Of a DNA stretch of 64,000 bases, positions 22 through 54,243 are shown one piece after another. The translations under genes were made by a program, and so were the position numbers. The DNA comes from Chthonomonadales bacterium (lineage in GTDB: Bacteria > Armatimonadota > Chthonomonadetes > Chthonomonadales > CAJBBX01). Below the pieces are notes generated by a model. It did not search any database. It saw only the letters and a list, made by a program, of their open reading frames with translations, and was not told the DNA's origin. Numbering within the stretch: the stretch's first letter is position 1; the number at the start of each line of letters is the position of its first letter. The stretch lies in the NCBI GenBank assembly GCA_038229495.1, contig JBBROJ010000004.1, forward strand, positions 9,320 to 73,319, in the 5' to 3' direction.

Positions 22-1078
22 TCAACGATTACCGGAAGACGGCCTCCGACCGGCCGAAAACATCGTTGTCGCGCGAGGAGCTGGCCCACGAGATAAAGCG
101 GTGGTCGGCGGAGTACGGCATAGACTGCGGCGGTTAGGAATTTTGTTCGCTTGAGCAAATAACCTGGACATTTCACTTCCAAGTAAATCATTGCGCTGAT
201 GCGTAAATCGGTCGACCTGTTCTGGCATTGTTTGTCATGTGGATGCCTTTTGCGCGCCAGGCGCGGGCAGAGACGGGTCTGGGGGCGGCCCTAATTCGGA
301 TATAAGAGTTTCCAGTTCTCGACCTTCGAATAGTAGGCTCCGAGATCATCTCTTGACAAGAACGATACAGATGTAAGGACTGCCTCAGGGTAAAGAGGTG
401 CTCCGGGCGATAGTCGCCTTCTAACGACTTTTCAATCTCTTCCGGGGTCGCCCGTATGCGCACCATCGATACATGGCATAGGCTGGCAAGCGTATGACGG
501 TTTCGTTCGCCCGCCAAATTGGCGTCTACTATCGCCAACCCGCTTTTTCCGACGATGTCGGCGATGACGGTATGCAGGAGAACATTCATCTGGGTGAGCG
601 ATTTCTGCAACCTATGAACATGACTGCTCGCCTGTTCTACCAGATTGGCGCGATGGCGCATCACCGTGCGGATCGCGCATATCTGCTGTTTGGGGCGGAA
701 GGATGCGTTCAAGAGACCGAACGAGAAGAGACGTTGAATCCAGACCGCGTCTTTAACATCCGTCTTGCGTCCGGGCACGTTCTTCAGGTGCCTGGCATTT
801 ACCAGGCAGACGTCGATTTTATGCGCCTCCAGGATTTCAAACAAAGGGACCCAGTAAACCCCCGTGCTTTCCATCGCCACTTCCTTGACCCCTCGTTCAA
901 GGAGCCACTGGGTCAGACTGTGAAGGTCCTGCGTGAAGGTGGGGAAGTGGCGTACGATGCATTCGCCACGGGCCTCATGGACGGCGACATAGATTTCTTC
1001 GGCCCCAATGTCGATGCCTGCAACGTTGGCTTTGATCTCAGGTAGGGTCTCCTGAATAGATTCGATTCTGGCGGTCAT
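22..1078 (-). pseudogene. IS110-family transposase, disrupted remnant
   Basis: ATG at 1078 (MTARIES...). The N-terminal DEDD/RuvC-like IS110 domain is present (AGIDIG, MESTGVYW, TDVKDAVWIQRL), as is the inter-domain region (EGDYRPEHLFTLRQSL). After ...SCQEMISE (about nt 340) the similarity continues only in another frame (ELETLISELGPPPDP...GSEMSR, ORF 22..228), and the helix-hairpin-helix segment seems partly deleted. The remnant reaches the window edge. Confidence 0.6.
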
Positions 1079-1704
1079 TTTTTCTCTCGTCTCTCGGCAA
1101 ACGAGGATACATTCCGTCGATAAATGTTGGTAATCTTCCAAAACGGGTTCTGTCCGTCTAATGTGGCAAACAGAGCTGACACTAATGAGAATCCATTCGA
1201 CGGAAAACCATGCTGAACATCGGGCTATAGAACGCACCAGTGACAGGCCGGGCTCGGTTGTATCCTGACTTTGCCGGCAATCATTTTACCAGCCCACACG
1301 TAATGGGGGAGTTACTTTGAGAGAAATCTTGCCCCGCAAGTTGGGATGCTGAACAGTTATGCGGCACGCGGAGGCGCGTGAAGGATAAGGAAATGGGGGT
1401 AAAACACGTACAGTAGTCCACGGATCAATTTGTCGGGTGAATTAACCGGGGACAGAGTTGTCTAGACCCTTGATGCCAGTTCCTGGAAACTAGGAATCGT
1501 CGAATTGCAAAGAGAACTCGAACGTACACAGCTGTAGACTTCCTATCCTGGGCGCAGGCTCTTCGCCTCTCCCTCTCATTGCCCTCTCCGCTTTGCCGTA
1601 TCGCAATCGCCTTTCACTTCCACAAGATCCCTTCGCTTTCGCGCCGTCGTACGAATATGTTAGGCGCAGCAAAATTTTGAATTTCTCGCCCGGAGGCCCG
1701 GCCC

Positions 1705-1732
1705 TGAACATGACGGCAGTGAATACCGATAA
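1705..1732 (+). promoter_or_regulatory. Candidate sigma-28 (FliA)-type promoter upstream of the first PilZ gene
   Basis: TGAA-N17-CCGATAATTC. Same spacing and same extended -10 as the motifs at 40152 and 46329. Lies 76 nt upstream of 1808. Confidence 0.35.
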
Positions 1733-1807
1733 TTCGGGGAGTTATACAGTTCTATGCGCAGCGCCGGGACTATGCGGCCTATCCTTTCGAAAAGGCACCG
1801 AATTTAA

Positions 1808-2482: not shown

Positions 2483-2592
2483 TTACGCCGGACGATCCTG
2501 TAGGATTAGTATCTGTTTAAAACGTAGTTGTCCCCGTAGTGATCACTATCTGCCTAAAACCGCGGAATCCCCGCCCGCGAAGGGGCTGTCAA

Positions 2593-3189
2593 ATGGCGTC
2601 AAATTCTGGTTTCGCCGAGATTGGAATCGAGGACGGCAGCCAAAGGCTCTACGGAGCGCTGGTTCAAATGAGTCAGGAAGGCGCGTTAATACGCCTCGAA
2701 CGCGCCCCCTCCTCAGCGCGCGCCGGTCCCGTGCCTTCAGGATCCTCTGCTTCCCTGACTATTGTAACGGGGAGCGCGATGTTCACCGCAACGGCGCGAA
2801 TCGTATCGGAATCGGCCGGCGATATCGCGATTGTGTTCAATTCCAGCCTGCATAAGGAGCAGTTGCGCTCCGAGGAGCGTTACGCTTGTGAGCTGTCGGT
2901 AATGTACAGGGCAAGGCATACGGACAGCCGCGCGGGAGCGTGGAGAACAGGATCGACTTACGAAGTGAGCGTGGGCGGCTTTTGTATGAAGGCGGATCGC
3001 TGCGTGGAGGAGTCGAAGCTTTTCGAAGTCTGTTTTGTATTACCGAATGATGAGGAACAGGCTCCGGTCCGATCGGAAGCGCGTATCGCATACCAGCGCG
3101 CGTGGGCGGACGGTAAAGTGGCCGTCGGTTTCGACTTCACCTCGATATCGGCCCGAGACAAGATGCGAATCCTTCGGTTTATGAATTAA
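2593..3189 (+). CDS. PilZ domain protein, tandem paralogue
   Basis: ATG 2593 (MASNSG...) is preferred over the ORF-track start at 2539. RxxxR is RSEER. EVSVGG is an Asp->Glu variant of (D/N)xSxxG. Same length and layout as 1808..2482. Confidence 0.7.
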
Positions 3190-3249: not shown

Positions 3250-5838
<2,589 letters not shown>

Positions 5839-5858
5839 ATGGGTCTCCGGAACGGAAG

Positions 5859-6036
5859 GTGTTCAGGTATTCGGGTGTTCAGGTATTCGGGTCGCTGGGT
5901 CAATGGGTCGTTAGGTCGTTGGATCGTTGGATCGTTAGGTCGTTGGATCGTTAGGTCGTTGGATCGTTAGGTCGTTGGATCGTTAGGTCGTTGATTCGTT
6001 CTTCCGACTTCCGTCTTCCGACTTCCGTCTTCCGAC
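5859..6036. repeat. Composite short-period tandem array in the clpX-lon spacer
   Basis: (gttcaggtattcgggt)x2, then about 12 units of RTCGTTRG, then (cttccgW)x5. Read in lon orientation: GGAAGNC array -> CNAACGA array -> CCGAATACCTGAAC array -> lon ATG. Confidence 0.9.
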
Positions 6037-6190
6037 GTTGTCCGTCAGCGGTCTTCATGTAGTGACACAAAGAAGAAGCAAGAGGCCATAGGACTCTTGC
6101 TTCTCTAATGAGGCGAGTACCCTTTATACTTAAAGGTATACCCGAAAGTTCCGGCTCATTGCCTGCTAGTCGGCAGCGTTCATGGTTCGC

Positions 6191-7462
6191 TTACGACGCC
6201 TGGCGAAGGTCCTGAATGGTAAGTACAGTCGGGTCTTCCCGCTTATCCACGGTATCCGCTGTAACTATGCACCGCTTTGCGTCCTTCGTCGAGGGGATCT
6301 CGTACATGATGTTCATCATGACCTCCTCGATAATTGTGCGAAGGGCGCGCGCGCCGGTGCTTCGCCGCATGGCTTCCCGCGCGATGGAGAGAATAGCGCC
6401 CTCCTCGAAGATGAGGTCGACCCCGTCATACTCGAAAAACTTGGCGTACTGCTTGGTGAGCGCGTTTTTCGGCTCGATTAGAATTTTGACCAGCGCCGCC
6501 TCGTCCAGGGACTCCAAGGTCGTGACGACCGGCAGGCGGCCAATAAATTCCGGGATAAGACCGTATTTGAGCAAGTCCTCCGGCATCACGTGCGCAAGCA
6601 TCTCCCCGACGTTGCGCTTCTCCTGCTTCGTGCCCCCCTCGTTCAGCAGCCCAATCTGGCCCTTCTTCTCTGTGCGCCGCGCTATCATTCTGTCGAGGCC
6701 CTCGAAAGCGCCGCCGCAAATGAACAGGATGTTGGACGTGTCAATCTGCACATACTCCTGCTGCGGGTGCTTGCGGCCACCCTGCGGAGGAACGTTCGCT
6801 ACGGTGCCCTCGATAATCTTGAGAAGGGACTGCTGCACGCCTTCGCCAGACACGTCGCGCGTAATGGACGGGTTCTCGGACTTGCGGGTGATCTTGTCGA
6901 TTTCATCGACGTAGATGATGCCGCGCTCCGCGTTGCGAATCGTCTCCTTCATATCGCCGCCGGTATCCGCCGCCTGTATCAGCTTGAGGAGGATATTCTC
7001 GACGTCTTCTCCGACGTATCCCGCTTCTGTAAGCGAGGTCGCGTCGGCGATGGCAAAGGGCACGTTCAGGATGCGCGCGAGGGTCTGGGCGAGGAGGGTC
7101 TTGCCGCTGCCGGTGGGGCCGATGAGCAGGATGTTCGACTTTTGAAGCTCGATGTCGCTTGCGGGAGCATTGATACGCTTGAAATGGTTGTAAACTGCCA
7201 CAGAAAGAGTGCGCTTGGCGCGCTCCTGCCCAATGACGTATTGCGAAAGAATTCGGTATATCTCTTTGGGCTTGGGGATCGACCCTATCGGGGTGAAGCT
7301 TTCCGCATTCGGCGTTTCGTTGCGGATGATGTCGTTGCAGAGGTCTATGCATTCCAGGCAAACGCCGCCATGGATTCCTATAATAAGCTTTTTGACCTGC
7401 TCGCGGCTCTTCCCGCACAAGAAACAGCGTTTTTCGTTCGTCGGTTCCAGTCCCCTCGCCAA
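6191..7462 (-). CDS. clpX: ATP-dependent Clp protease ATP-binding subunit ClpX
   Basis: Zinc ribbon CFLCGKS...CLECIDLC, Walker [12 protein letters not shown]+ core. TTG start at 7462. Confidence 0.97.
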
Positions 7463-7495
7463 AATGGCACCCCCGTGTCAGTTAACAGTCGTCAT

Positions 7496-7538
7496 TGATC
7501 AGTGGTCAGTCCGGATAGCTCTGACTGACCACTGATCA
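7496..7538. repeat. Perfect 16-bp hairpin (ATCAGTG unit family) in the clpP-clpX spacer
   Basis: tgatcagtggtcagtc / gactgaccactgatca with an 11-nt loop, followed by ctgacaa x2. Confidence 0.85.
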
Positions 7539-7565
7539 CTGACAACTGACAACCGTATTGTCGGT

Positions 7566-8219
7566 TTAGCGTTCGGCTTTATCTAGGACGTCGTCGACCA
7601 GACCGTACTCCTTGGCCTCCTCGGCGGAGAGCCAATAGTCGCGGTCGCAGTCGCGGGTGACCTTCTCGATGTCCTGGCCGGTGTGCTTGGCCAGAATGTT
7701 CATGAGGGCTTCCTGGGCGCGGTTCATCTCTTCCAGGCGGATTTTGGCGTCGGATACGGTTCCCTCGTAGCCGCCGGCCACCTGGTGCATCATGACACGG
7801 GAGTGGGGAAGGGCGAAGCGCTTGCCCGCCGCTCCGCCCGCAAGGAGGATAGCGCCCATGGAGGCGCATATGCCCATGCAGTAGGTTGCGACGTCACAGC
7901 TAATGTACTGCATTACGTCGTAGATTGCAAGACCCGAGGAAACGCTTCCGCCGGGACTGTTTATATAGACGTGGATGTCGGAATCCTTTTCCTCGTGCGC
8001 CAGGAACATAAGTTCCGCATTGATGAGGCTGGCGATATGATCGTCAATGGGACTGACGAGGAAGATAACGCGATCCTTTAGCAGGCGGGAATAGATGTCA
8101 TATGCCCGCTCTCCGCGCGCGCTCTGCTCGACAACCATCGGGATGACGTCTTTATCGGGGCGGATGACGCGCTCCGCCATCATGTATTGGGTATAGGGCC
8201 GCACGATTCGGTCGGACAT
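7566..8219 (-). CDS. clpP: ATP-dependent Clp protease proteolytic subunit ClpP
   Basis: [18 protein letters not shown], active-site context GICASMGA and MMHQ. The start may be an internal Met. Confidence 0.95.
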
Positions 8220-8231
8220 TGGGAAACTCCT

Positions 8232-8304
8232 ATCAGTGGTCCGTGGTCGGTGATCGGTGGTCAGTTCGGACTTTGCTGATCACTGATCGCCGACCACTGA
8301 TCAC
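8232..8304. repeat. Imperfect hairpin of ATCAGTG/GGTCGGT units in the tig-clpP spacer
   Basis: atcagtggtccgtggtcggtgatcggtggtcag ... ctgatcactgatcgccgaccactgatcac. The right arm overlaps the tig stop codon. Confidence 0.7.
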
Positions 8305-9602
8305 TCGGTTTTCGCGGGTACATCCACGATCTTTACGGTTTCGAAGAGATGGTCGCGCAGCTTGCGCTTGATGATAATATTTGTTACTTGCGTACGGCGT
8401 TTCTCGTCGCGGAAGAGGGTGCGCGCGTCTTCGTCGGAGAGCTTGTTCTGGACGGCGAGAAGGGCGAACTCGCCCGCCAGCTCCCCGTCGGTCACCTGGG
8501 TATTCAGCTTTTTGGCCAATTCGCGCAGAATCAGGACGCTCCGCACGCGATCTACAGCATTGGCTTGCAGCTTCTCGCGGTGTACCTCCTCGGTTTGCCC
8601 GGTCGCCTCCAGATACTCTTCATACGTCATTTTGCGGTTCTGCATTTCTTGGCTCAGCTCGTGCGCCTCGTCCTGCATCTCCTGCTCTACCATGACGTGC
8701 GGATATTCCACGGTGGAGCGCTTGATAAGCTCCTCGATAATTCGGCTCTCTACGACGCGGTCGGAAAGGTCCTTGATCTGGCCTTCCTGATTCTCTCGGA
8801 TAGCTTCTCTAAGTTCCTCGGCAGTTTTGAAGGGGGTAACCTGCTCCACCCACTCGTCCGTGACTTCCGGCAGCACCCGCTGATTGATGGTGGCGACATT
8901 CACGTCGAAGTGCGTGTTCTTGCCCGCGCGCTCGGCGTCCTGGTGATCCTCCGGATAGGTGAGGTCGAACGACCTCTCCTCGTCGGGCATCATGCCTAGA
9001 ATCTTGTCGTCAAATCCCGGAATGGATTCGCCCACTCGAATCAGGGTCCGGCGGGGCTGCGTCTGCGGCTCGTGCCCCTCAATATTCTCGGTCATCTCCG
9101 CAATCAGCACATCGCCCAATTGCACGCCCCTGCCGTCCACTTTCTCGGTTCGCGCGTACTCGCCGCGCAGCGATTCTATCTGGCGGTCTATGTCCTCGTC
9201 GCCTACCTGAAAAACGGGACGCTCGACGGATAAATCCTTATATTCGCCCAGCTCCACGTGAGGCGGCAGTGGAACGACGGCCTTGAACTGCCACGGCTCA
9301 CCGTCCGCGAGGTCCGAAAACTCGACCTCGGGATCGGCGAAGGGAGTAACCTCTTCCTTCTCAAGCGCTTCACGGTAGGCGGGCGCGGCGACAAGCTCCA
9401 TGACGCGCTCACGGACCTTCTCCTGGTTCACATAGCGCTCGACCATGCGGCGAGGCGCCTTGCCAGGGCGGAAGCCGGGTACATTGGTGTACTGCCCAAA
9501 CTCGCGGTAGGCCTGACCGAAAGCCTTGGAAATGATATCCGGCTCAATTTGAATATCGAGCGAAATCGTGCAGGGGTCAATCTGCTCTTTTGTGACCTGC
9601 AT
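8301..9602 (-). CDS. tig: Trigger factor
   Basis: 433 aa. Ribosome-binding motif GFRPGKAP, then a PPIase-like middle domain and a C-terminal arm domain. Sits in the conserved tig-clpP-clpX-lon order. Confidence 0.95.
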   Translation of the reverse strand: MQVTKEQIDPCTISLDIQIEPDIISKAFGQAYREFGQYTNVPGFRPGKAPRRMVERYVNQEKVRERVMELVAAPAYREALEKEEVTPFADPEVEFSDLADGEPWQFKAVVPLPPHVELGEYKDLSVERPVFQVGDEDIDRQIESLRGEYARTEKVDGRGVQLGDVLIAEMTENIEGHEPQTQPRRTLIRVGESIPGFDDKILGMMPDEERSFDLTYPEDHQDAERAGKNTHFDVNVATINQRVLPEVTDEWVEQVTPFKTAEELREAIRENQEGQIKDLSDRVVESRIIEELIKRSTVEYPHVMVEQEMQDEAHELSQEMQNRKMTYEEYLEATGQTEEVHREKLQANAVDRVRSVLILRELAKKLNTQVTDGELAGEFALLAVQNKLSDEDARTLFRDEKRRTQVTNIIIKRKLRDHLFETVKIVDVPAKTE

Positions 9603-10781: not shown

Positions 10782-12041
10782 TCATCGCTCGCCCGTTCGT
10801 CCCTGTCTACGATAATCACGCATGGATATGATTTGCAACCAAACGCCCGCGCTAATAATGGTAAACGAGGTCAGAAACGCGGCCTGATAGCCCACGGCGC
10901 GCATGAGAGGAATGGCGAATTGGGGGGCGATGGAGCCTCGGATTCCGAAGAAGCTGGAGTGGAGTGCCTGGTACTGCGCCGCCTTACCCGGCTCCGCGAA
11001 GAGCAGCGTGGTATTGAGGTAGGCGAGGTCAATGCCCGCGACCGCCAGCCCCATGCCGGCCGATGCAATATAGAGCGAGGAGAGCCCCCACGCCTGCGCG
11101 TAGAGCAGCGGCACGGCAAGGTTAAACGCCAAGGCGACCAGTACGGTCGTCAATGGCCCCCTGCGGTCGAGAAATCCGCCCCAGAAAAAGAAGCCCACGA
11201 TTGTGGCCACGGAGCTGAAGTTCTGCATATTGGCGACGGCTGTGTTCGAAATGTGGAATACGTCCACCTGGTAGATGGGGTAGAGCGTAGTCGCCATGAG
11301 ATTGCCGAAACCCGAAACGAATACGGACGCCGAGAACCAGCGGTAGCCGGGATTGCGCCGCAAAATATCCACCGTGTCGAGGAAGAAAGCGCGCGCGGAG
11401 GTGCGATCGCCAAGTGAATCATCTCCCGGAGGTACCCGGATTCGGCTGAATGTGAAGGCGCTCAGCGCGCCAAACGCTCCTCCCAGGCAGAATCCCGTTC
11501 TCCAACTGAGGCCATGGTCAAGCAGCCGACCCATAAGTAGCGCGGAGAACAGGGTCATCAAGCTCATGCCCATTCGCACAAAGCTCATCAGCCGGCCGCG
11601 GTGCCGGTCCGGGTAGATGTCCTTCATGATGGCGGTATAGGCCGGCATGGATATCGAGAAGACGAACGGGGTCAGGCAAACGAGCGCCACGAACTGGCCG
11701 CGGGAGTGGACGAAAGGGGTAATTAGAAACAGGCCGCGCGCGATAAGCCAGGTCCAGAAGACGAACGGCATTTTCGAGCGGCCATCCATCTGGCGGGCCC
11801 AGACCGTCGCGAAGACATAGCCGAGCGCGGGGGCGGCGGCTATCCAGCCCATATTTGCGTAGGTCGCATGCAGATCTGCACGTGCGACGCGCGCCACAAA
11901 GGTCCACACGCATCCCTGATAGAGGCCCGCCAGGATACCCGTGGCGATGTCCCATTTCCACGCGGTCTGGGTCTCGGTCGGCAGCACGGCGAGGCGGGCG
12001 CGCACGCTTGCCGTGAGGCTAGTGATGTCCAAAAAGGGCAA
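10782..12041 (-). CDS. MFS-type transporter
   Basis: 419 aa, about 12 hydrophobic helices with short loops, as in the major facilitator superfamily. Confidence 0.75.
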   Translation of the reverse strand: MPFLDITSLTASVRARLAVLPTETQTAWKWDIATGILAGLYQGCVWTFVARVARADLHATYANMGWIAAAPALGYVFATVWARQMDGRSKMPFVFWTWLIARGLFLITPFVHSRGQFVALVCLTPFVFSISMPAYTAIMKDIYPDRHRGRLMSFVRMGMSLMTLFSALLMGRLLDHGLSWRTGFCLGGAFGALSAFTFSRIRVPPGDDSLGDRTSARAFFLDTVDILRRNPGYRWFSASVFVSGFGNLMATTLYPIYQVDVFHISNTAVANMQNFSSVATIVGFFFWGGFLDRRGPLTTVLVALAFNLAVPLLYAQAWGLSSLYIASAGMGLAVAGIDLAYLNTTLLFAEPGKAAQYQALHSSFFGIRGSIAPQFAIPLMRAVGYQAAFLTSFTIISAGVWLQIISMRDYRRQGRTGER

Positions 12042-12335
12042 TCCCGGAGGTTATGTCCGACCGGTCCTCAACCGGGAACCGTTCGGCCCCTTAAGGTTAG
12101 GTTATCAGGCGATGTTCTCCTGCCCCACCCGTCTCTGGATCAAGTCCTATCTAGCGGCTTTGCCAAGTCAACGTTAAGCGGCTGCTTCCCTTATCCCCAA
12201 AACCGGATTGTTCACGTAGAGACCGGCGCTACGGCATGTAGCGGAGGTTGCTCCCTATAGGGTAATCCTGAGCACCTGAGCGCCGTTGGCGGCATTGCGG
12301 GTAAGAAACAGTGACGCATTCGTTGCGTAGTAGCT

Positions 12336-23063: not shown

Positions 23064-23777
23064 ATGCCACTCCCCATCCTCATGTACCACAAGGTCGGCG
23101 CGCCCGTCGCGTCGAAGGCGGACACCTTCCTGAACGTCTCCGCCAAGAGCTTTGCGCGGCAAATGCGGCTGCTCATGCGGCTCGGATATACGGGGATCAC
23201 GCTCGCGGAAGGCTGCGAGAGGCTTGCCGCGGGCAGTCTGCCCCGGCGCACCGTCTGCGTCACGTTCGACGATGGCTACGCAAGTGTCGGCGATCATGCG
23301 GCGCCAATTCTCGATGCTTATGGATGGCCGGCGACCGTATTCGTCCCGACCGCCTATGTAGGCGGCGAAAACCAATGGGACGGAATGAACGGTCACCCGC
23401 TGCTGCCTATCATGAACTGGTCCAGGCTCAGGGAGCTTCAGGAAGCGGGATGGGAGATGGCGGCGCATACCCGTACGCACCCTCGCCTGGAAACGCTGGG
23501 CGACGACGAGGCTCTGCGCGAGATGCGTGAGGGCCGGGACGACCTGACAAACAACCTTACCGCGCCTGCGCGAACGTTCTGCTACCCCTTCGGCGGCATC
23601 AACGCGCGGACGCCGCAGCTTGCGCGGGAGGCCGGATTTGTGGCGGCGTGCACAACGAAGAGTGGTGTCGCCCGGCACGATTCCGATCCTTTCCTTCTGC
23701 CGCGCGTAAAGGTCGCCTATCGCGATGACGTCTGGGGTCTCTTTTATCGCCTCGTGATTCGCCCGCGGCTAAATTAG
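23064..23777 (+). CDS. Polysaccharide deacetylase (CE4 / NodB homology)
   Basis: ILMYHKV N-terminus, TFDDGY metal motif, HTRTHPRL. Confidence 0.88.
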   Translation: MPLPILMYHKVGAPVASKADTFLNVSAKSFARQMRLLMRLGYTGITLAEGCERLAAGSLPRRTVCVTFDDGYASVGDHAAPILDAYGWPATVFVPTAYVGGENQWDGMNGHPLLPIMNWSRLRELQEAGWEMAAHTRTHPRLETLGDDEALREMREGRDDLTNNLTAPARTFCYPFGGINARTPQLAREAGFVAACTTKSGVARHDSDPFLLPRVKVAYRDDVWGLFYRLVIRPRLN

Positions 23778-23950
23778 CCCGTAATTCGACCTGTTCCGTA
23801 GAATCCCCCTTCAGTTATTGCGCGTTTAAGTCGATAATAATTGAGCGCGGGGAAAGAGTGGGTATATGCGGAACCTGGATGTTGCCGCCCCCGAGCAGTG
23901 GAGGCGCGAACGGCGAATGATGGGCACGAACGTCGCGTCTGTAATAACTT

Positions 23951-25288
23951 ATGTCGAACGACACCAACCGGCGGCTGTCGGATCTGGAGGTTCACGACCT
24001 TCTGCGTGAGTACAAGCTCACTCGCCGGCAGGCGATTCGAGACCGCATCGTAATGCAATATACCAATCTCGTGGAAAGCATAGCAAGGCGCTTCGCGGGG
24101 GCGGCTGAACCAAGTGAAGATCTGGCGCAAGAAGGATATATCGGGCTAATTACTGCCGTAGACGGATATGACGCCGACAAAGGAGTCAAATTCAGCACCT
24201 ACGCTACTCACTTTATTATCGGGCAGATTAAACATCACCTGCGTGACAGGGGCAAAATCATAAAGGAGCCCGCCTGGCTGCAAGAGCTTAACCAGAAGGT
24301 TACCAAAGTCATTGAGTCGCTGTCGCAAGAGCTTGGCCGCCCGCCTACGAATAGTGAGATAGCAAAATTGATGGGCATGCAGGAAGAGGCCATCGCGGAC
24401 CTCATGACGAGCAGAGAGGTCTTCAAAGTCGCGTCATTGGACGGTGGAAATGAGCAGGATGACGAGGCGTCTTCGACCTATGACATGGACAGAGTAAAGG
24501 CGGATAAAGCCGTCGACTTCCAGCTGCCGGTCGAGGAGAAGCTCGTGCTCGAAACGGCCCTTCGAAAGCTCAAGGAGCTGGAACAGGCCGTGGTCCAGGA
24601 GTTCTATTACCGGGACAGAAACCAGACGGAGATCGCCCGTAACATGGGAATCTCCTGCAACTACGTATCGCACATTCTTCGCAATTCGACGAAGAAGCTG
24701 AAAAAGATCATGGTCACCGATGAGATCAAGGAGGCGCAGATGGCGATGAGCCTGGTGCGCCGCCGTGGAGACTCGCTGCCCGTGATCTCAACGGAACAGA
24801 CCGTCGTGGATGGCTTGACCAGGCTCTACAACCGCCGCTACTTCGACAGTCGTCTCGAAGAGGAGCTGAGCCGCGCAAGCCGCTACGAAGCGCCGCTGTC
24901 CATACTGCTGATAGAACTTCAGGGGTACGAGCAGATCGGCCGGGCTTATGGTACGATTCGCGCTGAGGAGACGCTTCGGAGCGCGGCAGACATAATCCGC
25001 GAAACGGTTAGAAAAGCGGACATCGTCACGCGGTTCGACAATTGCTGCTTTGGCCTGGTGCTTCCGCACACGGGGACCCAGGTTGAGGTCGTGGTGAATC
25101 GATTGACGGACAACCTGGGCGAGTGGCTTGTTTCGGAGGGGCATCTGACAAGCAGAGCGCCTCTGGCCCTCAAGCTGGGGTGGGCGTGTTATCCGCGGGA
25201 CGCCGAAGACGGCGCAGCGCTTCTAGCGCACGCCGCCGAATCTATCGCGGCCGTTGAGATTGCAGGCCAGACCGCTATCGCGGCCTAG
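23951..25288 (+). CDS. Group-3 sigma factor (SigB/F/G-like) fused to a degenerate GGDEF domain with a retained RxxD I-site
   Basis: Aa 1-255 carry region 2 (DLAQEGYIGLITAVDGYD, FSTYATHFIIGQIKHHLRD), region 3, and region 4.2 (QTEIARNMGISCNYVSHILRNSTKKLKK). Aa 286-445 form a GGDEF fold (DGLTRLYNRRYF). The GG(D/E)EF site reads DNCCF (nt 25037-25051). RKAD lies exactly 5 residues upstream of it. Confidence 0.85.
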   Translation: MSNDTNRRLSDLEVHDLLREYKLTRRQAIRDRIVMQYTNLVESIARRFAGAAEPSEDLAQEGYIGLITAVDGYDADKGVKFSTYATHFIIGQIKHHLRDRGKIIKEPAWLQELNQKVTKVIESLSQELGRPPTNSEIAKLMGMQEEAIADLMTSREVFKVASLDGGNEQDDEASSTYDMDRVKADKAVDFQLPVEEKLVLETALRKLKELEQAVVQEFYYRDRNQTEIARNMGISCNYVSHILRNSTKKLKKIMVTDEIKEAQMAMSLVRRRGDSLPVISTEQTVVDGLTRLYNRRYFDSRLEEELSRASRYEAPLSILLIELQGYEQIGRAYGTIRAEETLRSAADIIRETVRKADIVTRFDNCCFGLVLPHTGTQVEVVVNRLTDNLGEWLVSEGHLTSRAPLALKLGWACYPRDAEDGAALLAHAAESIAAVEIAGQTAIAA

Positions 25289-40090: not shown

Positions 40091-40151
40091 CGCGGGCTGC
40101 ATCAGGCGCTCCCTTCCACATTTGGCCCGTAGTTTCCCCAAAACAATTACC

Positions 40152-40179
40152 TGAAGAACGCTCAATAACCGCCCGATAA
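40152..40179 (+). promoter_or_regulatory. Candidate sigma-28-type promoter upstream of fliK
   Basis: TGAA-N17-CCGATAATTC, 52 nt upstream of the fliK start. Confidence 0.4.
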
Positions 40180-40230
40180 TTCACACAGCAGTTAGTACAG
40201 GTAAATTTAGCAGGAAGGAGGTAGACCAAG

Positions 40231-42729
40231 TTGGTGAATCCCACAGTACCTGCCGTTTCCCAGGCAAGCGCTAGCACAGGCGCCCTCGAACAGACGTCCG
40301 CGACTTCCGCTCCCGGCGACATTTCCGATGGAAGTCCCTTCGCAAATGTTCTTGCTCACACCGTGGTTTCGAATAGTACTACCGGAAAGGGCCGTCCCGC
40401 CGCGCGGGGATCGAAGCCAGATCCGAGCGGCTCACCGGCCACCGCGGACGAGAGTGCGGAAGCCGATATGCCCCCGCAAGAAGGCGTACCCTCCGCCAAT
40501 TCGGCGGTCTCAGCTATGCTAAGTGCCGTATTCGCCGGAATCAATCCCGGGCCCCAGGGCCTCGACGTTGTGACGTCAACGAAGGCCTCGGGCTCTTCAT
40601 CCGTCAAGCCGGCATCCTGCACCACGGCACCTGGAGGTACGGAGAAGCAACACGCGCAGCCACTTGTGAAGTTATTCACGCAGCCGATCACTCCCATCAC
40701 TCCCATCACTCCCATCACTCCCATCACTCCCATCACTCCCATCACTCCCATGACTCCCATCACTCCCATCACTCCCATCACTCCCATCACTCCCATGACT
40801 CCCATGACTACCATGATTACCATGACTACCGTGGCAGCCTCAACCGATAACGCGCAATTGGTGGACGCCGTAACTACGACTACGACTACAACCGGGCACA
40901 GCAAGGTCGTAACCGGCGAGCTAAAAGCGCAGACACCGATTCCTCAAACCGGTTCCTATGGGCCCCACGACTTAGATGCAGCAAATGCTGTAACAGCCAT
41001 GTCTGTCTCGGTTCATACCGCGCCAATTAAGCCTTTGCCGGAGATCGCCACAGCGCAGTCGCTTCTTACGCAGACTGCTGGAGTCGAATTTCCGCAGGCA
41101 GGCGCAACCAATAGCGTGACAGGAGAGGTTACAGCGCCGGGAACTTCGATTCCGACACAAAATGAGTCCAAGTCGCAAGCTGCGTCTATCGCGCAGGCAA
41201 CGCCCGTTATGCAGGCAACGCCCAGTGTGCAAGTTGCGCCCAGTATACAGGCTGCGATTATCGCGCAGGCAACGCCCAGTAAGCAGGCTGCGACTATCGC
41301 GCAGGCAACGCCCATTATGCAGGCAACGCCCGTTATGCAGTCATTGCCTGCCACGTATGCCGCGCCCGGTATGGAGGTCGTCTCGAGCATACAGGTCTCT
41401 CCCGGCGTACAGGCAGCATCGGTCGCGGCGCAGGGTTCGCCGCTCACCGCGGACGCGGGAATCAAAGGCATAACAGGCATAACAGCCATTGCAGGCATAA
41501 GCAGGAAGCCGGCGCCGGCGAACGTTACCGCCCCGGACGGACGTACCGGACAGTCAGCGGCTAAAGCCGCAATCTCTCCAGTCTCTCCGATCTCACGTGA
41601 AGCTGATATGCGCCCGGCGAGCCTACCCACCGTGGATCCAGGCGCTCCGTCGAATTCACGTTCACAGCCGATTCCCGCTGGGGCAATTCAGCCGCAGGAA
41701 AAATTGACGCGAACTCTGTTGACGAGTGCGCCGCAGCCCGACAATTCCCAGCCATCGGAGCACACCGCTTTGGGTGTCGCCGCGCCCAAGTCGGCTGTGC
41801 TCGCGACAACAGCGCCGGCCGCTCAACTCGGCGCGCCGGCCCTCATGGCGTCCGAAGCGGCAAACCCGGTTGACCCGCGCCAGGCGCAGACGACTGGACA
41901 AGGGATCAACCCCAATTTGCGGCAAATTCCCGCCGGCGCCCCGGCCATCTCGACCGCGCCCGCCGGCAATCAGACATCCCTGTCGGCTGCCCTGCTTTCG
42001 GCAGCCGTTCCACCGGACAACAGCCGGCCCCTCGACCGAAACTTCGCGATGGAGCGAACGACAATGACGTCGCTCGGAAGCACGGCAATGGCTGCGTCCA
42101 CCATAGGCCAGGCGGCTTTGGGAGAAGAGCAGAGCGCGGCTGATAAAGAGCGCCGCTCTTCCCCCGGACCGGATACCTCCGATCCGAAGCTTGGGCAGAC
42201 GGCGACCACCGGCAGCGCGACCGCCGAGTTCTCTCTCAAGGCCGCCCGAATTGAGGCAGCCGCGCAGCCGCCGCCGCACGACCGAATGCACGTCGTGGAG
42301 CAGGTCATGCAAAAAATGGAGACTTTGCGGCTCTCGCATGGCCACCAGGAGGTGACCGTCCATTTGCGACCCGATCACCTGGGGGACCTTCGTCTTACGA
42401 TCGTCGCCGACGGCCATAACGTCACGGCCACGATCGTGGCGGAGACTGCCGCCGCGAGTGAAGCAGTGAGAGAGGGCCATGAGCAGCTTCGCTCCGCGCT
42501 GGAACAGAAAGGTTACTCGCTTCAGGGGCTCGACGTCTCACTCGACGCCTCATTCAGTAACAGCGGTGGTGAACAGAAGTTCCTGCCCTTTGAGCAGAAT
42601 CAGCAGCCGTCCGGGCCAATGCGATCCTACGCCTCGCCCGACAACTTGGAGCCCGCTATTCACTTGCCTTTGGAAACGCGCTCCATGGTTGTATCGCGGG
42701 GAGCCGGAAGGCTGGACTATCAGGCATGA
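40231..42729 (+). CDS. fliK: Flagellar hook-length control protein FliK (unusually long, repeat-rich)
   Basis: 832 aa. C-terminal Flg_hook domain (VHLRPDHLGDLRLTIVADGHNVTATIVAE). Disordered Pro/Thr/Ala/Gln-rich N-terminal two thirds. TTG/GTG start. Confidence 0.85.
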   Translation: MVNPTVPAVSQASASTGALEQTSATSAPGDISDGSPFANVLAHTVVSNSTTGKGRPAARGSKPDPSGSPATADESAEADMPPQEGVPSANSAVSAMLSAVFAGINPGPQGLDVVTSTKASGSSSVKPASCTTAPGGTEKQHAQPLVKLFTQPITPITPITPITPITPITPITPMTPITPITPITPITPMTPMTTMITMTTVAASTDNAQLVDAVTTTTTTTGHSKVVTGELKAQTPIPQTGSYGPHDLDAANAVTAMSVSVHTAPIKPLPEIATAQSLLTQTAGVEFPQAGATNSVTGEVTAPGTSIPTQNESKSQAASIAQATPVMQATPSVQVAPSIQAAIIAQATPSKQAATIAQATPIMQATPVMQSLPATYAAPGMEVVSSIQVSPGVQAASVAAQGSPLTADAGIKGITGITAIAGISRKPAPANVTAPDGRTGQSAAKAAISPVSPISREADMRPASLPTVDPGAPSNSRSQPIPAGAIQPQEKLTRTLLTSAPQPDNSQPSEHTALGVAAPKSAVLATTAPAAQLGAPALMASEAANPVDPRQAQTTGQGINPNLRQIPAGAPAISTAPAGNQTSLSAALLSAAVPPDNSRPLDRNFAMERTTMTSLGSTAMAASTIGQAALGEEQSAADKERRSSPGPDTSDPKLGQTATTGSATAEFSLKAARIEAAAQPPPHDRMHVVEQVMQKMETLRLSHGHQEVTVHLRPDHLGDLRLTIVADGHNVTATIVAETAAASEAVREGHEQLRSALEQKGYSLQGLDVSLDASFSNSGGEQKFLPFEQNQQPSGPMRSYASPDNLEPAIHLPLETRSMVVSRGAGRLDYQA
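40687..40830 (+). repeat. In-frame 9-bp microsatellite (atcactccc)n inside fliK
   Basis: 16 consecutive units encoding ITPx7-MTP-ITPx4-MTP-MTT-MIT-MTT. Confidence 0.95.
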
Positions 42730-46294: not shown

Positions 46295-46328
46295 GCCGAC
46301 CTCTTCCATGTTTCCCGCAAAAACTCCC

Positions 46329-46356
46329 TAACTATTTTCCCCACGTTCTCCGATAA
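46329..46356 (+). promoter_or_regulatory. Candidate sigma-28-type promoter upstream of fliM
   Basis: TAAC-N17-CCGATAATTC, 223 nt upstream of the fliM GTG, just after the hairpin array. Confidence 0.4.
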
Positions 46357-46578
46357 TTCAACCGAGGCTGCTTCCGCTTAGCAACCGGCGCGAGCGCGAT
46401 GGCATTGCCGATCCGCGCGATGAGATGCGCGGCCTCACAGTGATCGTTTGAAACCAGGCAGCCGCTTGAGCTGCCGCGCGCGGGTGGAAGGCAAGGCTGG
46501 AATCGGTCAGGAAGGCGGGCTGCCTCACGCCCCGACTCCTTTCTTCTCACAGTCTCCTCCCGTCTGCTCCATCGGAGG

Positions 46579-47655
46579 GTGAAGTTGGTCGAGATTCTTT
46601 CTCAGGCCGAGATTGAGGCGCTCCTCGCGTCGCTGACAAGCGATGGTGATTCCGTCGATCCCGAGCCAGACAGCAGCATTAGCGAGCCCGTACAGTTTAC
46701 GAGGGGGGGAGGCGCGCCCGCATCCGCGCTTGCCCTGTCCTCTCCCACCCGCCCGGATGCGCGCCGCACAATCGCCTACGAGCCCTACGATTTTCGCAGG
46801 CCGGACAAGTTCTCCAAGGATCAGCTGCGCACATTGCAGATGCTCCATGAGACTTTCGCCCGGCTGTTCGCCTCATCCCTGTCCGCCTACCTCCGAGTCT
46901 CCACTCATGTCGATCTCGTAAGCGTCGAGCAGGTTCCCTACAACGAGTACATGCGCTCCCTGACAACGTCGATTATCAACGTTTTCAGCCTCGGGCCGCT
47001 CGAAGGCCAGGCCATCCTGGAGATGGAATTTAACGTCGTCCTCGCCATGATCGATCGTCTTCTGGGCGGGCCAGGCAACATGGTAAAGACCAACACTATG
47101 TTGACGGAAATTGAAAAGGCTCTCACGGAATCCATTATCAATCGCGCCCTCAGGGACCTTCAGACAGCATGGGTCAGCGTGGTCGCTTTTACTGCGAAGC
47201 GCGAAAGCATGGAGACTCAATCGCAATTCATACAGATCGTCCCGCCGAACGATACCATCGTGTCGATTCTGTTCGAGGTAAAGGTTGGCGATCTGCGTGG
47301 CGCGATGAGCCTGTGCATACCCTATCTTCTGCTGAAGCCCATCACTCCAAAGCTTTCGGTACAGCGCTGGTTCTCCTCCACCGCCGGCGAGAACGCGGGC
47401 CAGAATTCGGAACAGCTCGCGAAGCGCCTTTCAAAAGCGAAGGTGACCTGTGTCTGCCGCCTCGGCACTTCGCGAATCACGGTCCGTGAGTTGGTAAATC
47501 TTAGTGCGGGCGACACGGTCCTGCTGGATCGGCGCAATACCGACGAGGTGGACCTGATGATTGGCAACAGCGTAAAGTTTCGCGGCAAGCCCGGCACCGC
47601 GGGCCGCAAAGTCGCGCTCCACATCAACCGTATTGCAGGCGACGACCGCGCCTAA
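46579..47655 (+). CDS. fliM: Flagellar motor switch protein FliM
   Basis: GTG start. N-terminal CheY-P binding motif ILSQAEIEALL. FliM middle domain and C-terminal SpoA-like domain. Confidence 0.93.
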   Translation: MKLVEILSQAEIEALLASLTSDGDSVDPEPDSSISEPVQFTRGGGAPASALALSSPTRPDARRTIAYEPYDFRRPDKFSKDQLRTLQMLHETFARLFASSLSAYLRVSTHVDLVSVEQVPYNEYMRSLTTSIINVFSLGPLEGQAILEMEFNVVLAMIDRLLGGPGNMVKTNTMLTEIEKALTESIINRALRDLQTAWVSVVAFTAKRESMETQSQFIQIVPPNDTIVSILFEVKVGDLRGAMSLCIPYLLLKPITPKLSVQRWFSSTAGENAGQNSEQLAKRLSKAKVTCVCRLGTSRITVRELVNLSAGDTVLLDRRNTDEVDLMIGNSVKFRGKPGTAGRKVALHINRIAGDDRA

Positions 47656-53283: not shown

Positions 53284-54243
53284 TTGGAAAAGGTCGTGGT
53301 GGTAGGAAAGAGCTGGAAACTGTTCGATGAGGCAATCCACATTATCGAGGAGGCCGGCGGAACGGTGATCCACCTGGACAGCCTGGACCCGGAGGTGATT
53401 GCCGGCGCCTGCAGCGATGCATCCGCCGTCATGGCGATTCTCGCGCCGATTCCGGCTTCGGTCATCAATCGCCTGGAAAAATGCAAGGTGATCGTCCGCG
53501 TGGGCGTGGGCTACGACAGTGTGGATGTCGAGGCGGCGAGGGAGCGTGGTATTCCCGTGTGCAACGTGCCCGATTACTGTACCGACGAAGTCGCGGACCA
53601 CACACTCGCGCTGACTCTCGCTCTGGCACGCGCTCTCCCGCTTTTGGATCGCAGCCTGCGCGTACAGACGTGGAAACCGGTCCTGCCCTACCCAATCCAC
53701 TCTTCCGAGAATTTGACGTTCGGGGTTGTTGGCTTTGGCCGCATAGGCCGGGCCGCCGTTCAACGCGCCAGGGTCTTCGAATACCGTCTCGCGGCGTGCG
53801 ACCCCTACGCAGCCCCCGAGGTGTTTGCGGAGGAGGGCGTCGCGCGAATGGACATCGATACCATTACCGCTTGCGCCGACATCCTATCATTGCACGCCCC
53901 GCTCACGCCGGAGACAGATCGACTGTTCGATGCCGCGCGCCTCTCGAAAATGAAGACCGGGGCCATCCTCATCAATACCGCGCGAGGACAATTGGTTGAC
54001 AATCATGCGCTCGCGGAGGCGCTTGCCGGCGGAAGATTGGCGGCCGCGGGCATTGACGTATTCGAAGAGGAGCCGCTACCGCCGGACCACCCCCTGCTCG
54101 CCTGCCCAACGGCTCTCCTCACGCCTCACTATGCGTGGCACAGTGCGGAGAGCGAGCGCCGGCTGCACCGGCGCTCCGCGGAAGAGGTGGCGCGCGCGCT
54201 TCGGGGCCGCCCGCTGCACTGCTCGGTCAGCGCTTTCTCGTGA
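53284..54243 (+). CDS. D-isomer-specific 2-hydroxyacid dehydrogenase family protein
   Basis: TTG start. NAD motif GFGRIGR, and LHAPLTPET...INTARG...DVFEEEP...TPHYAW. Confidence 0.88.
   Translation: MEKVVVVGKSWKLFDEAIHIIEEAGGTVIHLDSLDPEVIAGACSDASAVMAILAPIPASVINRLEKCKVIVRVGVGYDSVDVEAARERGIPVCNVPDYCTDEVADHTLALTLALARALPLLDRSLRVQTWKPVLPYPIHSSENLTFGVVGFGRIGRAAVQRARVFEYRLAACDPYAAPEVFAEEGVARMDIDTITACADILSLHAPLTPETDRLFDAARLSKMKTGAILINTARGQLVDNHALAEALAGGRLAAAGIDVFEEEPLPPDHPLLACPTALLTPHYAWHSAESERRLHRRSAEEVARALRGRPLHCSVSAFS

Follow-up and report, generated by a model that had tools for sequence, protein, structure and literature searches.

Cyclic di-guanosine monophosphate (c-di-GMP) acts on transcription via BldD, FleQ, VpsT and riboswitches, and to our knowledge its route via an anti-sigma factor is known from a single case only, RsiG. 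In the group-4 sigma factors of the extracytoplasmic function (ECF) families ECF41 and ECF42, a fused C-terminal extension of SnoaL-like or tetratricopeptide repeat (TPR) type replaces the anti-sigma factor, and no nucleotide ligand of this extension is known. RsiG and its partner WhiG in Streptomyces are a system in which a group-3 sigma factor from the FliA/WhiG branch, and through it a developmental or motility-type regulon, is under the control of c-di-GMP (PMC7005675). SigF of Synechocystis sp. PCC 6803 is autoregulated and drives the type IV pilus gene pilA1 and motility genes (PMC2532724). PopA, a PleD-like protein, binds c-di-GMP in the pocket of its GGDEF domain, leading to dimerisation and to ClpXP-dependent degradation of CtrA, and the substitution R357G abolishes this binding (PMC8020655). 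The gene described here is located in a stretch of 64,000 nucleotides (nt) from a Chthonomonadales bacterium of the phylum Armatimonadota (contig JBBROJ010000004.1), called the window in the following. It encodes a sigma factor to which a degenerate GGDEF domain is joined (sigma-GGDEF), and the gene product is probably a group-3 (SigF/FliA-like) alternative sigma factor of the Armatimonadota with a built-in second-messenger sensor.

With PopA, PelD, CdgA and SgmT the encoded protein shares a GGDEF fold which lacks a functional active site (A-site) and retains an intact RxxD motif of the inhibitory site (I-site). Those proteins are receiver, GAF or transmembrane fusions or act with separate partners, whereas in the window the receptor-type domain is fused to the sigma factor itself. 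RsiG, a separate anti-sigma factor with a coiled-coil motif and without a GGDEF domain, is the main binder of c-di-GMP in its system; in the window, in contrast, the candidate I-site is located on the fused domain, and a separate anti-sigma factor is not evident in the neighbourhood of the gene. As in ECF41 and ECF42, a fused regulator is proposed to stand in the place of the anti-sigma factor, but the sigma factor belongs to group 3 and the candidate ligand is a nucleotide. Like Synechocystis SigF, it is a group-3 factor that is neither a classical FliA nor a SigB; unlike sigma-GGDEF, SigF has no C-terminal domain. We know of no other group-3 sigma factor with a fused ligand-binding regulatory domain, and the one in the window would be the first. 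The modules as such are known, and their combination and its role are without description in the searchable literature (most subscription journals are outside its coverage), which agrees with the original prediction that no covalent sigma-GGDEF fusion had been characterised.

The gene and the parts of its product, with Pfam scores and the gathering cut-off of each profile, are the following.

23951–25288, plus strand: sigma-GGDEF gene, a complete open reading frame (ORF) of 445 amino acids (aa) and stop codon; group-3 sigma factor joined to a degenerate GGDEF domain
24050–24256, plus strand: Sigma-70 region 2, aa 34–102 (PF04542, 67.3 bits, cut-off 24), mostly invariant in the family
24284–24484, plus strand: Sigma-70 region 3, aa 112–178 (PF04539, 50.7 bits, cut-off 25.3)
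24557–24706, plus strand: Sigma-70 region 4 with the helix-turn-helix of region 4.2, aa 203–252 (PF04545, 45.4 bits, cut-off 24.1)
24707–24802, plus strand: linker, aa 253–284, with a conserved start followed by about 20 variable residues of low model confidence
24803–25255, plus strand: domain of GGDEF fold, aa 285–435 (PF00990, 86.8 bits, cut-off 23.8), catalytically degenerate

The ORF contains no internal stop across its 445 codons. In the Pfam scan regions 2, 3 and 4 and the GGDEF domain were each judged against the gathering score of their own profile, and all four lie above it; the GGDEF match spans profile positions 2–154 of 161 (153/161). The N-terminal 255 residues form a complete sigma factor with regions 2, 3 and 4. 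Neither region 1.1 nor the non-conserved insert is present, which places the protein in group 3 of the sigma-70 factors, and there is no room for region 1.1 because region 2 begins at aa 34. Within region 4.2, the stretch from QTEIA to ISCNYVSHILRNSTKKLKK is nearly invariant in the family alignment. The linker starts with IMVTDEIKEAQ in the window (VTDEL[RK]xAQ in the family), and this start extends the last helix of sigma region 4. The uninterrupted frame of 445 codons and the complete group-3 sigma factor, both part of the original prediction, are thus borne out by the ORF scan and by the hidden Markov model (HMM) scan for the sigma and GGDEF profiles that had been proposed as a check.

Among the NCBIfam models, SigB/F/G (TIGR02980) ranks first with 188 bits, under its curated cut-off of 234.35, and cyanobacterial SigF (PRK07408) ranks second with 163 bits, under a cut-off of 261. 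The FliA/WhiG model (TIGR02479) reaches 116.7 bits and likewise stays under its curated cut-off of 189.6, and classical FliA, unlike the protein in the window, is devoid of an extra domain and is held by FlgM. Since no NCBIfam model reaches its curated cut-off, the sigma factor appears to represent a group-3 subfamily of its own. Public annotation of the homologues reads 'sigma-70 family' or 'sigma-B factor' only. An assignment to SigB/F/G rather than FliA had been predicted, and the HMM ranking agrees with this; the two models both remain under their cut-offs, however, and the promoter of the gene is of sigma28/sigmaF-like type (see below).

Conservation of the fusion extends across the phylum Armatimonadota. 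A protein search found at least 118 full-length homologues (52–82% identity) with regions 2, 3 and 4 and the GGDEF domain in one ORF of about 445 residues, so that the search for the same architecture in relatives, suggested along with the original prediction, had a positive outcome. Relatives are encoded by 116 species genomes (one genome per species was scanned), and the 80 genomes listed of these 116 are all titled Armatimonadota, Chthonomonadales, Fimbriimonadales or metagenome-assembled genomes (MAGs). Mean identity to the protein in the window amounts to 75% in the sigma part, 49% in the GGDEF domain, 35% in the linker and 8.5% in the C-terminal tail. With the GGDEF part as query, only 11 clusters among 1.84 billion cluster representatives were found at E≤1e-30, which suggests that this part forms a small separate clade. 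Three distant fusions (P0143, P0185 and P0136), with E values of 1e-83 to 1e-101 for the sigma part and a GGDEF part that is 34–38% identical, retain RxxD and are without the GGDEF motif.

These comparisons also bear on the trivial explanation that the fusion is an artefact of assembly or annotation, or a pseudogene made of two joined genes. This is hardly conceivable, since the 118 homologues from many independent assemblies share the single ORF, a relative is present in 116 species genomes, the identical protein is found on an independent Logan assembly, and the start of the linker is conserved. A frameshift between the two halves, for which an inspection of reads had been advised, is ruled out by the comparative data even without reads.

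The residues which decide between an enzyme and a receptor are located as follows in the GGDEF domain.

25010–25021, plus strand: RxxD motif of the I-site, R354-K-A-D357, in register with RxxD in the cyclase structures 6d9m and 6zxm
25037–25051, plus strand: degenerate A-site DNCCF, aa 363–367, instead of GG[DE]EF
25100–25102, plus strand: R384, third arginine of the I-site, aligned to R of 'AERIR' in 6d9m

RKAD (aa 354–357) precedes DNCCF by exactly five residues. HMMER alignment with the solved cyclases places RKAD on SVREVD or SFRKSD and DNCCF on GGDEF or GGEEF, which confirms the register that had been read from the window alone. R354 and D357 are invariant in 118/118 homologues. R384, which we take to be the equivalent of PleD R390, is invariant in an alignment of 74 sequences (A1) and is carried by 117 of the 118 family sequences. 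The catalytic positions drift over the same 118 sequences: GG[DE]EF occurs in none of them, the five A-site columns read D/G/E, E/N/D, D/E/Q, T/M/V and F, the position of the metal-binding Asp (322) is R, K or E, and that of the guanine-binding Asn (330) is S, G or T. The C-terminal K/R stretch for phosphate binding is gone from the family, with 'L..xA' in its place. Retained are the turn DxLTxLYNRRYF, an invariant arginine/glutamate face of helix alpha-1 (R301, E304, E305, R308, R311), and an acidic residue (D or E) at position 339, the equivalent of D344, in 117/118 sequences.

An active diguanylate cyclase has an intact A-site, the metal-binding Asp and the guanine-binding Asn/Asp, none of which is found here; a degenerate c-di-GMP receptor has RxxD five residues upstream of the A-site together with the third arginine, and both are found. 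It is well supported by these alignments that the GGDEF domain is catalytically dead, as every catalytic determinant appears to be lost. We strongly infer that its I-site binds c-di-GMP, because the A-site has decayed while the triad R354, D357 and R384 is kept, as in other degenerate-GGDEF receptors of c-di-GMP. The proposal of a dead GGDEF domain which keeps its I-site thereby gains the support of the whole family. In the manner of PleD, WspR and PopA, the bound ligand would probably be an intercalated dimer.

The domain might instead be a nucleotide-independent module for dimerisation, localisation or protein contact, in which RxxD is structural; the sigma factor might thereby be anchored, for instance, to a partner cyclase or to the machinery of pilus or flagellum. 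Many degenerate GGDEF domains serve as scaffolds of local signalling (study of the E. coli GGDEF/EAL interactome, PMC5635695), and the invariant face of helix alpha-1 could be a protein interface. We regard such a scaffold as unlikely, however, as the invariant residues are exactly the triad that holds c-di-GMP, in a domain of which the rest is 49% identical, and a structural role alone would not be expected to keep precisely these three residues where the GGDEF part has diverged to 34–38% identity.

Degenerate GGDEF domains which bind GTP exist as well, for example in Caulobacter PdeA. If the remnant active site or the I-site sensed a different nucleotide, such as GTP, (p)ppGpp or a cyclic dinucleotide other than c-di-GMP, sigma activity would be tied to the guanine-nucleotide pool and not to c-di-GMP. 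The D344-equivalent acid at position 339 is in line with such a sensor, as are the PDB entries 9g85 and 9g86, which contain PleD with ppGpp/pppGpp beside c-di-GMP. But conservation is absent at the metal-binding Asp, at the guanine-binding Asn and throughout the GG[DE]EF loop, and the phosphate-binding stretch is replaced by 'L..xA'; with all these positions lost, a surviving GTP site is unlikely, and we consider a sensor of another nucleotide altogether very improbable.

An AlphaFold model built from 74 homologues gives the GGDEF part a predicted local distance difference test score (pLDDT) of >90. In Foldseek this part matches the GGDEF domain of T. maritima (4urs/4urg) with a template modelling (TM) score of 0.78–0.82 and a root-mean-square deviation of 2.7–2.8 Å, so that the structure prediction, also proposed as a check, backs the GGDEF fold. 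The N-terminal half resembles structures of SigB and SigA. Between the two, the AF2 model shows a helix at aa 236–272 and falls to pLDDT <50 at aa 271–282 in the linker.

The conserved genomic context of the gene is a type IV pilus operon, of which sigma-GGDEF is often the last gene. In approximately 34 of 77 loci the gene is located directly 3′ of pilQ, pilB, pilT and pilC on the same strand, often at a distance of <100 nt, and Pfam recognises Secretin, T2SSE with MshEN, T2SSF and PilO at the pilus loci. Among the pilus-linked loci are MAGs with the titles Fimbriimonadales and 'HR15', and protein identity falls as low as about 44% there. Independent gene calls yield the order pilM-(N)-pilO-(P)-pilQ-pilB-pilT-pilC-sigma in the loci L083 and L084, and pilT-pilC-sigma in L082 for the distant fusion P0185. 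In contrast to FliA, sigma-GGDEF is also linked to pilus genes, as in the Fimbriimonadales-titled MAGs L075 and L080. Fimbriimonas ginsengisoli, the cultivated representative of the Fimbriimonadales, has been reported to be non-motile and rich in pilins, with a single sigma gene of 'fliA' type (PMC4072686). This fits the reading of a pilus sigma factor, provided that this gene is the orthologue of sigma-GGDEF.

The PilB ATPase encoded upstream of sigma-GGDEF carries MshEN (3712–5481 in L023; 5722–7449 in L083/L084). MshEN is a c-di-GMP-binding module, and pilus assembly may therefore depend on c-di-GMP at the protein level too. In L083/L084, approximately 400 nt downstream of sigma-GGDEF, the same strand codes at 11732–12277 for a protein of 181 aa with an HD domain (PF01966).

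The gene in the window is preceded by a predicted promoter.

23807–23838, plus strand: bipartite promoter of group-3 type, CCCTTCAG, 15 nt (TTATTGCGCGTTTAA), then GTCGATAAT

The motif cCCTaAAG-N13-ttCTGGCAATAAT, which is equivalent to TAAA-N16-GGCAATAA, precedes the orthologue in 42 loci and is located 70–225 nt upstream of the ATG where the sigma-GGDEF gene is solitary. Sites were located via the -10 core, and neither the -35 box nor the CTGG flank was used in finding them. With the window excluded from training, the promoter in the window is the best site of the position weight matrix (PWM) in 64 kb (21.9 vs. a shuffle maximum of 20.1), and the sequence SCGATAAT is observed 11 times in the window vs. 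3.6 ± 1.8 expected. The consensus of sigma28 promoters is TAAA-N15-GCCGATAA, and the -10 box of B. subtilis sigmaF is GGnRAnAnT; compared with these, the motif looks sigma28/sigmaF-like and resembles group-3 promoters. The likeness to FliA/sigma28/SigD lies in the pattern TAAA-N15/16-G(C/G)C(G/A)ATAA and in candidate sites before fliK and fliM. The promoter of Synechocystis SigF, TAGGC / GGTAA, differs from CCTaAAG / GGCAATAAT of the present family. A scan for SigmaA-type promoters and terminators around the gene gave nothing informative.

A box of the same type is present upstream of pilB in nine loci (L023, L025, L030, L050, L051, L055, L058, L074 and L083). In L083 the box CCCTTCAAG-N14-GCCGATAAC at 5576–5608 heads pilB-pilT-pilC-sigma. 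The simplest reading of these motifs is that sigma-GGDEF would recognise the promoters of its own gene and of pilB, which would amount to autoregulation and to control of pilus motor genes.

Based on synteny and on the promoter evidence, we propose a regulon that would comprise the pilus motor genes pilB-pilT-pilC and, by positive autoregulation, the gene of the sigma factor; in members with flagella, such as the bacterium of the window, some of the flagellar and PilZ genes would be added. We tentatively hypothesise, as a possibility for which the odds are not quite even, that the sigma factor with its fused I-site is a c-di-GMP receptor, and that the ligand switches off, or destabilises via the Ala-Ala terminus and ClpXP, one group-3 sigma factor which drives type IV pilus genes, flagellar genes where present, and its own gene, all without an anti-sigma factor. 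Binding would change how much of the sigma factor is available to core RNA polymerase. For this, the ligand might cross-link two GGDEF domains, or the GGDEF domain might dock onto the sigma domains as a built-in anti-sigma factor; alternatively or in addition, the ligand might gate the Ala-Ala tail for ClpXP. That high c-di-GMP would switch the sigma factor off, and not on, is a guess by analogy. Given the proposed binding and the proposed regulon, transcription for motility and adhesion would be set by c-di-GMP directly at the sigma factor. The original proposal of a sigma activity that responds to c-di-GMP is in this sense a well-motivated hypothesis.

The proteolytic branch of this model concerns the following features.

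25280–25285, plus strand: terminal Ala-Ala, candidate degron of ClpXP type, following an unconserved tail of low model confidence
3250–9602, minus strand: contiguous run of tig (8301–9602), clpP (7566–8219), clpX (6191–7462) and lon (3250–5838), identified by Pfam

Of 120 proteins, 119 end in Ala-Ala, as do the products of 76 of 77 genomic loci, against a background of 10/701 (1.4%) among the other ORFs of the same loci. The 8–15 residues preceding it are not conserved (the tail identity of 8.5% given above), and the last block of the model has a pLDDT of about 50. The ssrA-like signals recognised by ClpX are typified by an Ala-Ala end on a flexible tail, and the C-terminus of sigma-GGDEF, which is predicted to be exposed, agrees with such signals in sequence. 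It may thus be a degron of ClpXP type. As the Ala-Ala is invariant on a flexible tail and clpP-clpX is present in the window, we consider regulated proteolysis likely as a second layer of control, perhaps gated by the ligand state of the adjoining domain. In Caulobacter, c-di-GMP-bound PopA helps ClpXP to degrade CtrA, of which the C-terminal 15 residues are an adaptor-independent ClpXP degron (bioRxiv 10.1101/301606). In contrast to PopA, the candidate degron of the protein in the window sits on the C-terminus of the receptor itself.

The Ala-Ala of 119 of 120 proteins after an unconserved tail, the ClpP and ClpX encoded in the window and the precedent of PopA and CtrA would also suit a c-di-GMP receptor that acts on proteolysis alone. 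The GGDEF domain would then be a degron cassette which hides or exposes the Ala-Ala, and no allostery on the sigma factor would be involved. This seems quite unlikely to us: the tail is predicted to be exposed whatever the ligand state, no adaptor has been identified, and the rules of ClpX recognition are not established for Armatimonadota. We retain the reading in which c-di-GMP binding to the fused domain would govern the sigma factor itself, with proteolysis as a possible additional layer.

Apart from the promoter of the gene itself, the window contains three weak matches to the same motif.

1702–1733, plus strand: CCCTGAAC..ACCGATAAT, PWM score 13.9, intergenic, some 75 nt ahead of the first PilZ gene (1808–2482), a candidate member of the regulon
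40149–40180, plus strand: ACCTGAAG..CCCGATAAT, PWM score 16.7, intergenic, 51 nt upstream of fliK (40231–42729, Pfam)
46326–46357, plus strand: CCCTAACT..TCCGATAAT, PWM score 13.1, in the fliL-fliM gap upstream of fliM (46579–47655, Pfam)

The sites before PilZ, fliK and fliM have the same spacing as the promoter, but their scores lie within the range of shuffled sequences and are singly not significant. This is one of several observations that speak against sigma-GGDEF as a c-di-GMP-controlled switch of pilus and flagellar genes. The pilus linkage is lost in the clade of the window itself, the Chthonomonadaceae, where the gene is solitary or located 3′ of a WD40/TPR gene. In flagellated members, a separate FliA could instead read the promoter of the gene. 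The HMM ranking favours SigB/F/G, while the -10 box resembles that of sigma28. A confident packing of the domains against each other was not obtained from AlphaFold (predicted TM score 0.40), and therefore both autoinhibitory docking and dimerisation are without structural support. Recognition by ClpXP is only weakly predicted by an Ala-Ala end. Beyond the anatomy of the protein, binding, transcription and degradation are all inferred.

Between promoter and start codon, a further conserved element was found.

23904–23940, plus strand: leader hairpin with the stem CGGCG/CGTCG and outer pairs and the conserved loop AATGATGGGCACGAA, ending about 11–15 nt before the ATG

Its core, CG[TA]AC-GATGGG[AC]ACGAA, is present between promoter and start codon in the window and in 24 further loci (L002–L005, L009, L011, L013, L015–L018, L020, L022, L026, L028, L029, L031, L038, L056, L060–L062, L065 and L067), and across loci the hairpin ends about 11–30 nt before the start codon. 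The stems differ yet stay complementary, for example ATGCGCGCC/GGCGCGCAT, GAAGC/GCTTC and GCTCG/CGAGC. The stem averages 5.9 bp over 23 aligned sequences; shuffling of the flanks gives 3.65 ± 0.29, and swapping of partners between loci gives 4.41 ± 0.27 and never more than 5.3 in 1000 trials. There is one copy of the core per locus and one in the window, and the hairpin is not present where the gene directly follows pilC. The element might add a layer of post-transcriptional control to the gene.

In Rfam 15 the interval 23700–24050 gives no match of relevance at E values up to 10. Four explanations of the hairpin were considered and not adopted. A CsrA site is unlikely, as GGA is lost in the clade of the window (GGGCAC). 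A conserved upstream ORF starting at the AUG of the loop is not supported; its length varies from 6 to >200 codons, and only the first 4–5 codons are alike. A regulon-wide element does not agree with a single copy per locus which is always located before the sigma-GGDEF gene. Finally, a SigB-like -10 box (GGGAAC) is unlikely, as a covarying stem is present and a conserved -35 box is absent.

In the window, the neighbours of the gene encode GT4, CE4, aminotransferase and amidohydrolase proteins. No kinase of RsbW/SpoIIAB type and no STAS antagonist is adjacent to the gene or found among the recurrent neighbours of 80 related loci (neighbourhoods only), in keeping with the original prediction, which had noted that a gene of RsbW/SpoIIAB type was not adjacent. 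A polysaccharide context had also been predicted from the upstream GT4 and CE4 genes. Pfam confirms both genes, but the context is specific to this genome: 0/80 related loci have a homologue of either beside the sigma gene. The GT4/CE4 neighbourhood is therefore uninformative and was rejected as functional context.

In one subgroup of the Chthonomonadaceae, a gene for a WD40 beta-propeller/TPR protein of about 565 aa is often preceded by genes for an NHL-repeat protein and an AAA ATPase. The WD40/TPR gene is located directly upstream of the orthologue in L013, L018, L031, L037, L045, L056, L060, L061 and L067, and approximately 2 kb upstream in L026.

Two further items that had been noted from the sequence, the pair of PilZ genes and a flagellar cluster, are confirmed by Pfam in the window.

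1808–2482 and 2539–3189, plus strand: tandem pair of PilZ genes (Pfam)

A gene for an IS110-family transposase (188–1237, minus strand) lies beside this pair in divergent orientation. The flagellar cluster (31555–53175 and 53284–54243) comprises flgB, flgC, fliF, fliG, fliI, fliK, flgE, fliL, fliM, fliP and flhB, with a 2-hydroxyacid dehydrogenase gene directly after flhB. Neither flhA nor fliA nor flgM is found among the ORFs of the cluster that were examined, the cluster being annotated in part.

If the proposed model is true, a sigma factor that itself senses c-di-GMP would offer the shortest possible route from the second messenger to promoter choice, and the Armatimonadota would possess a one-protein transcriptional switch between motile and sessile states that works without an anti-sigma factor. 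The family offers concrete predictions in its I-site triad, its terminal degron, its promoter motif and its leader hairpin. These would provide a testable handle on regulation in a poorly studied phylum with few operons and many sigma factors.

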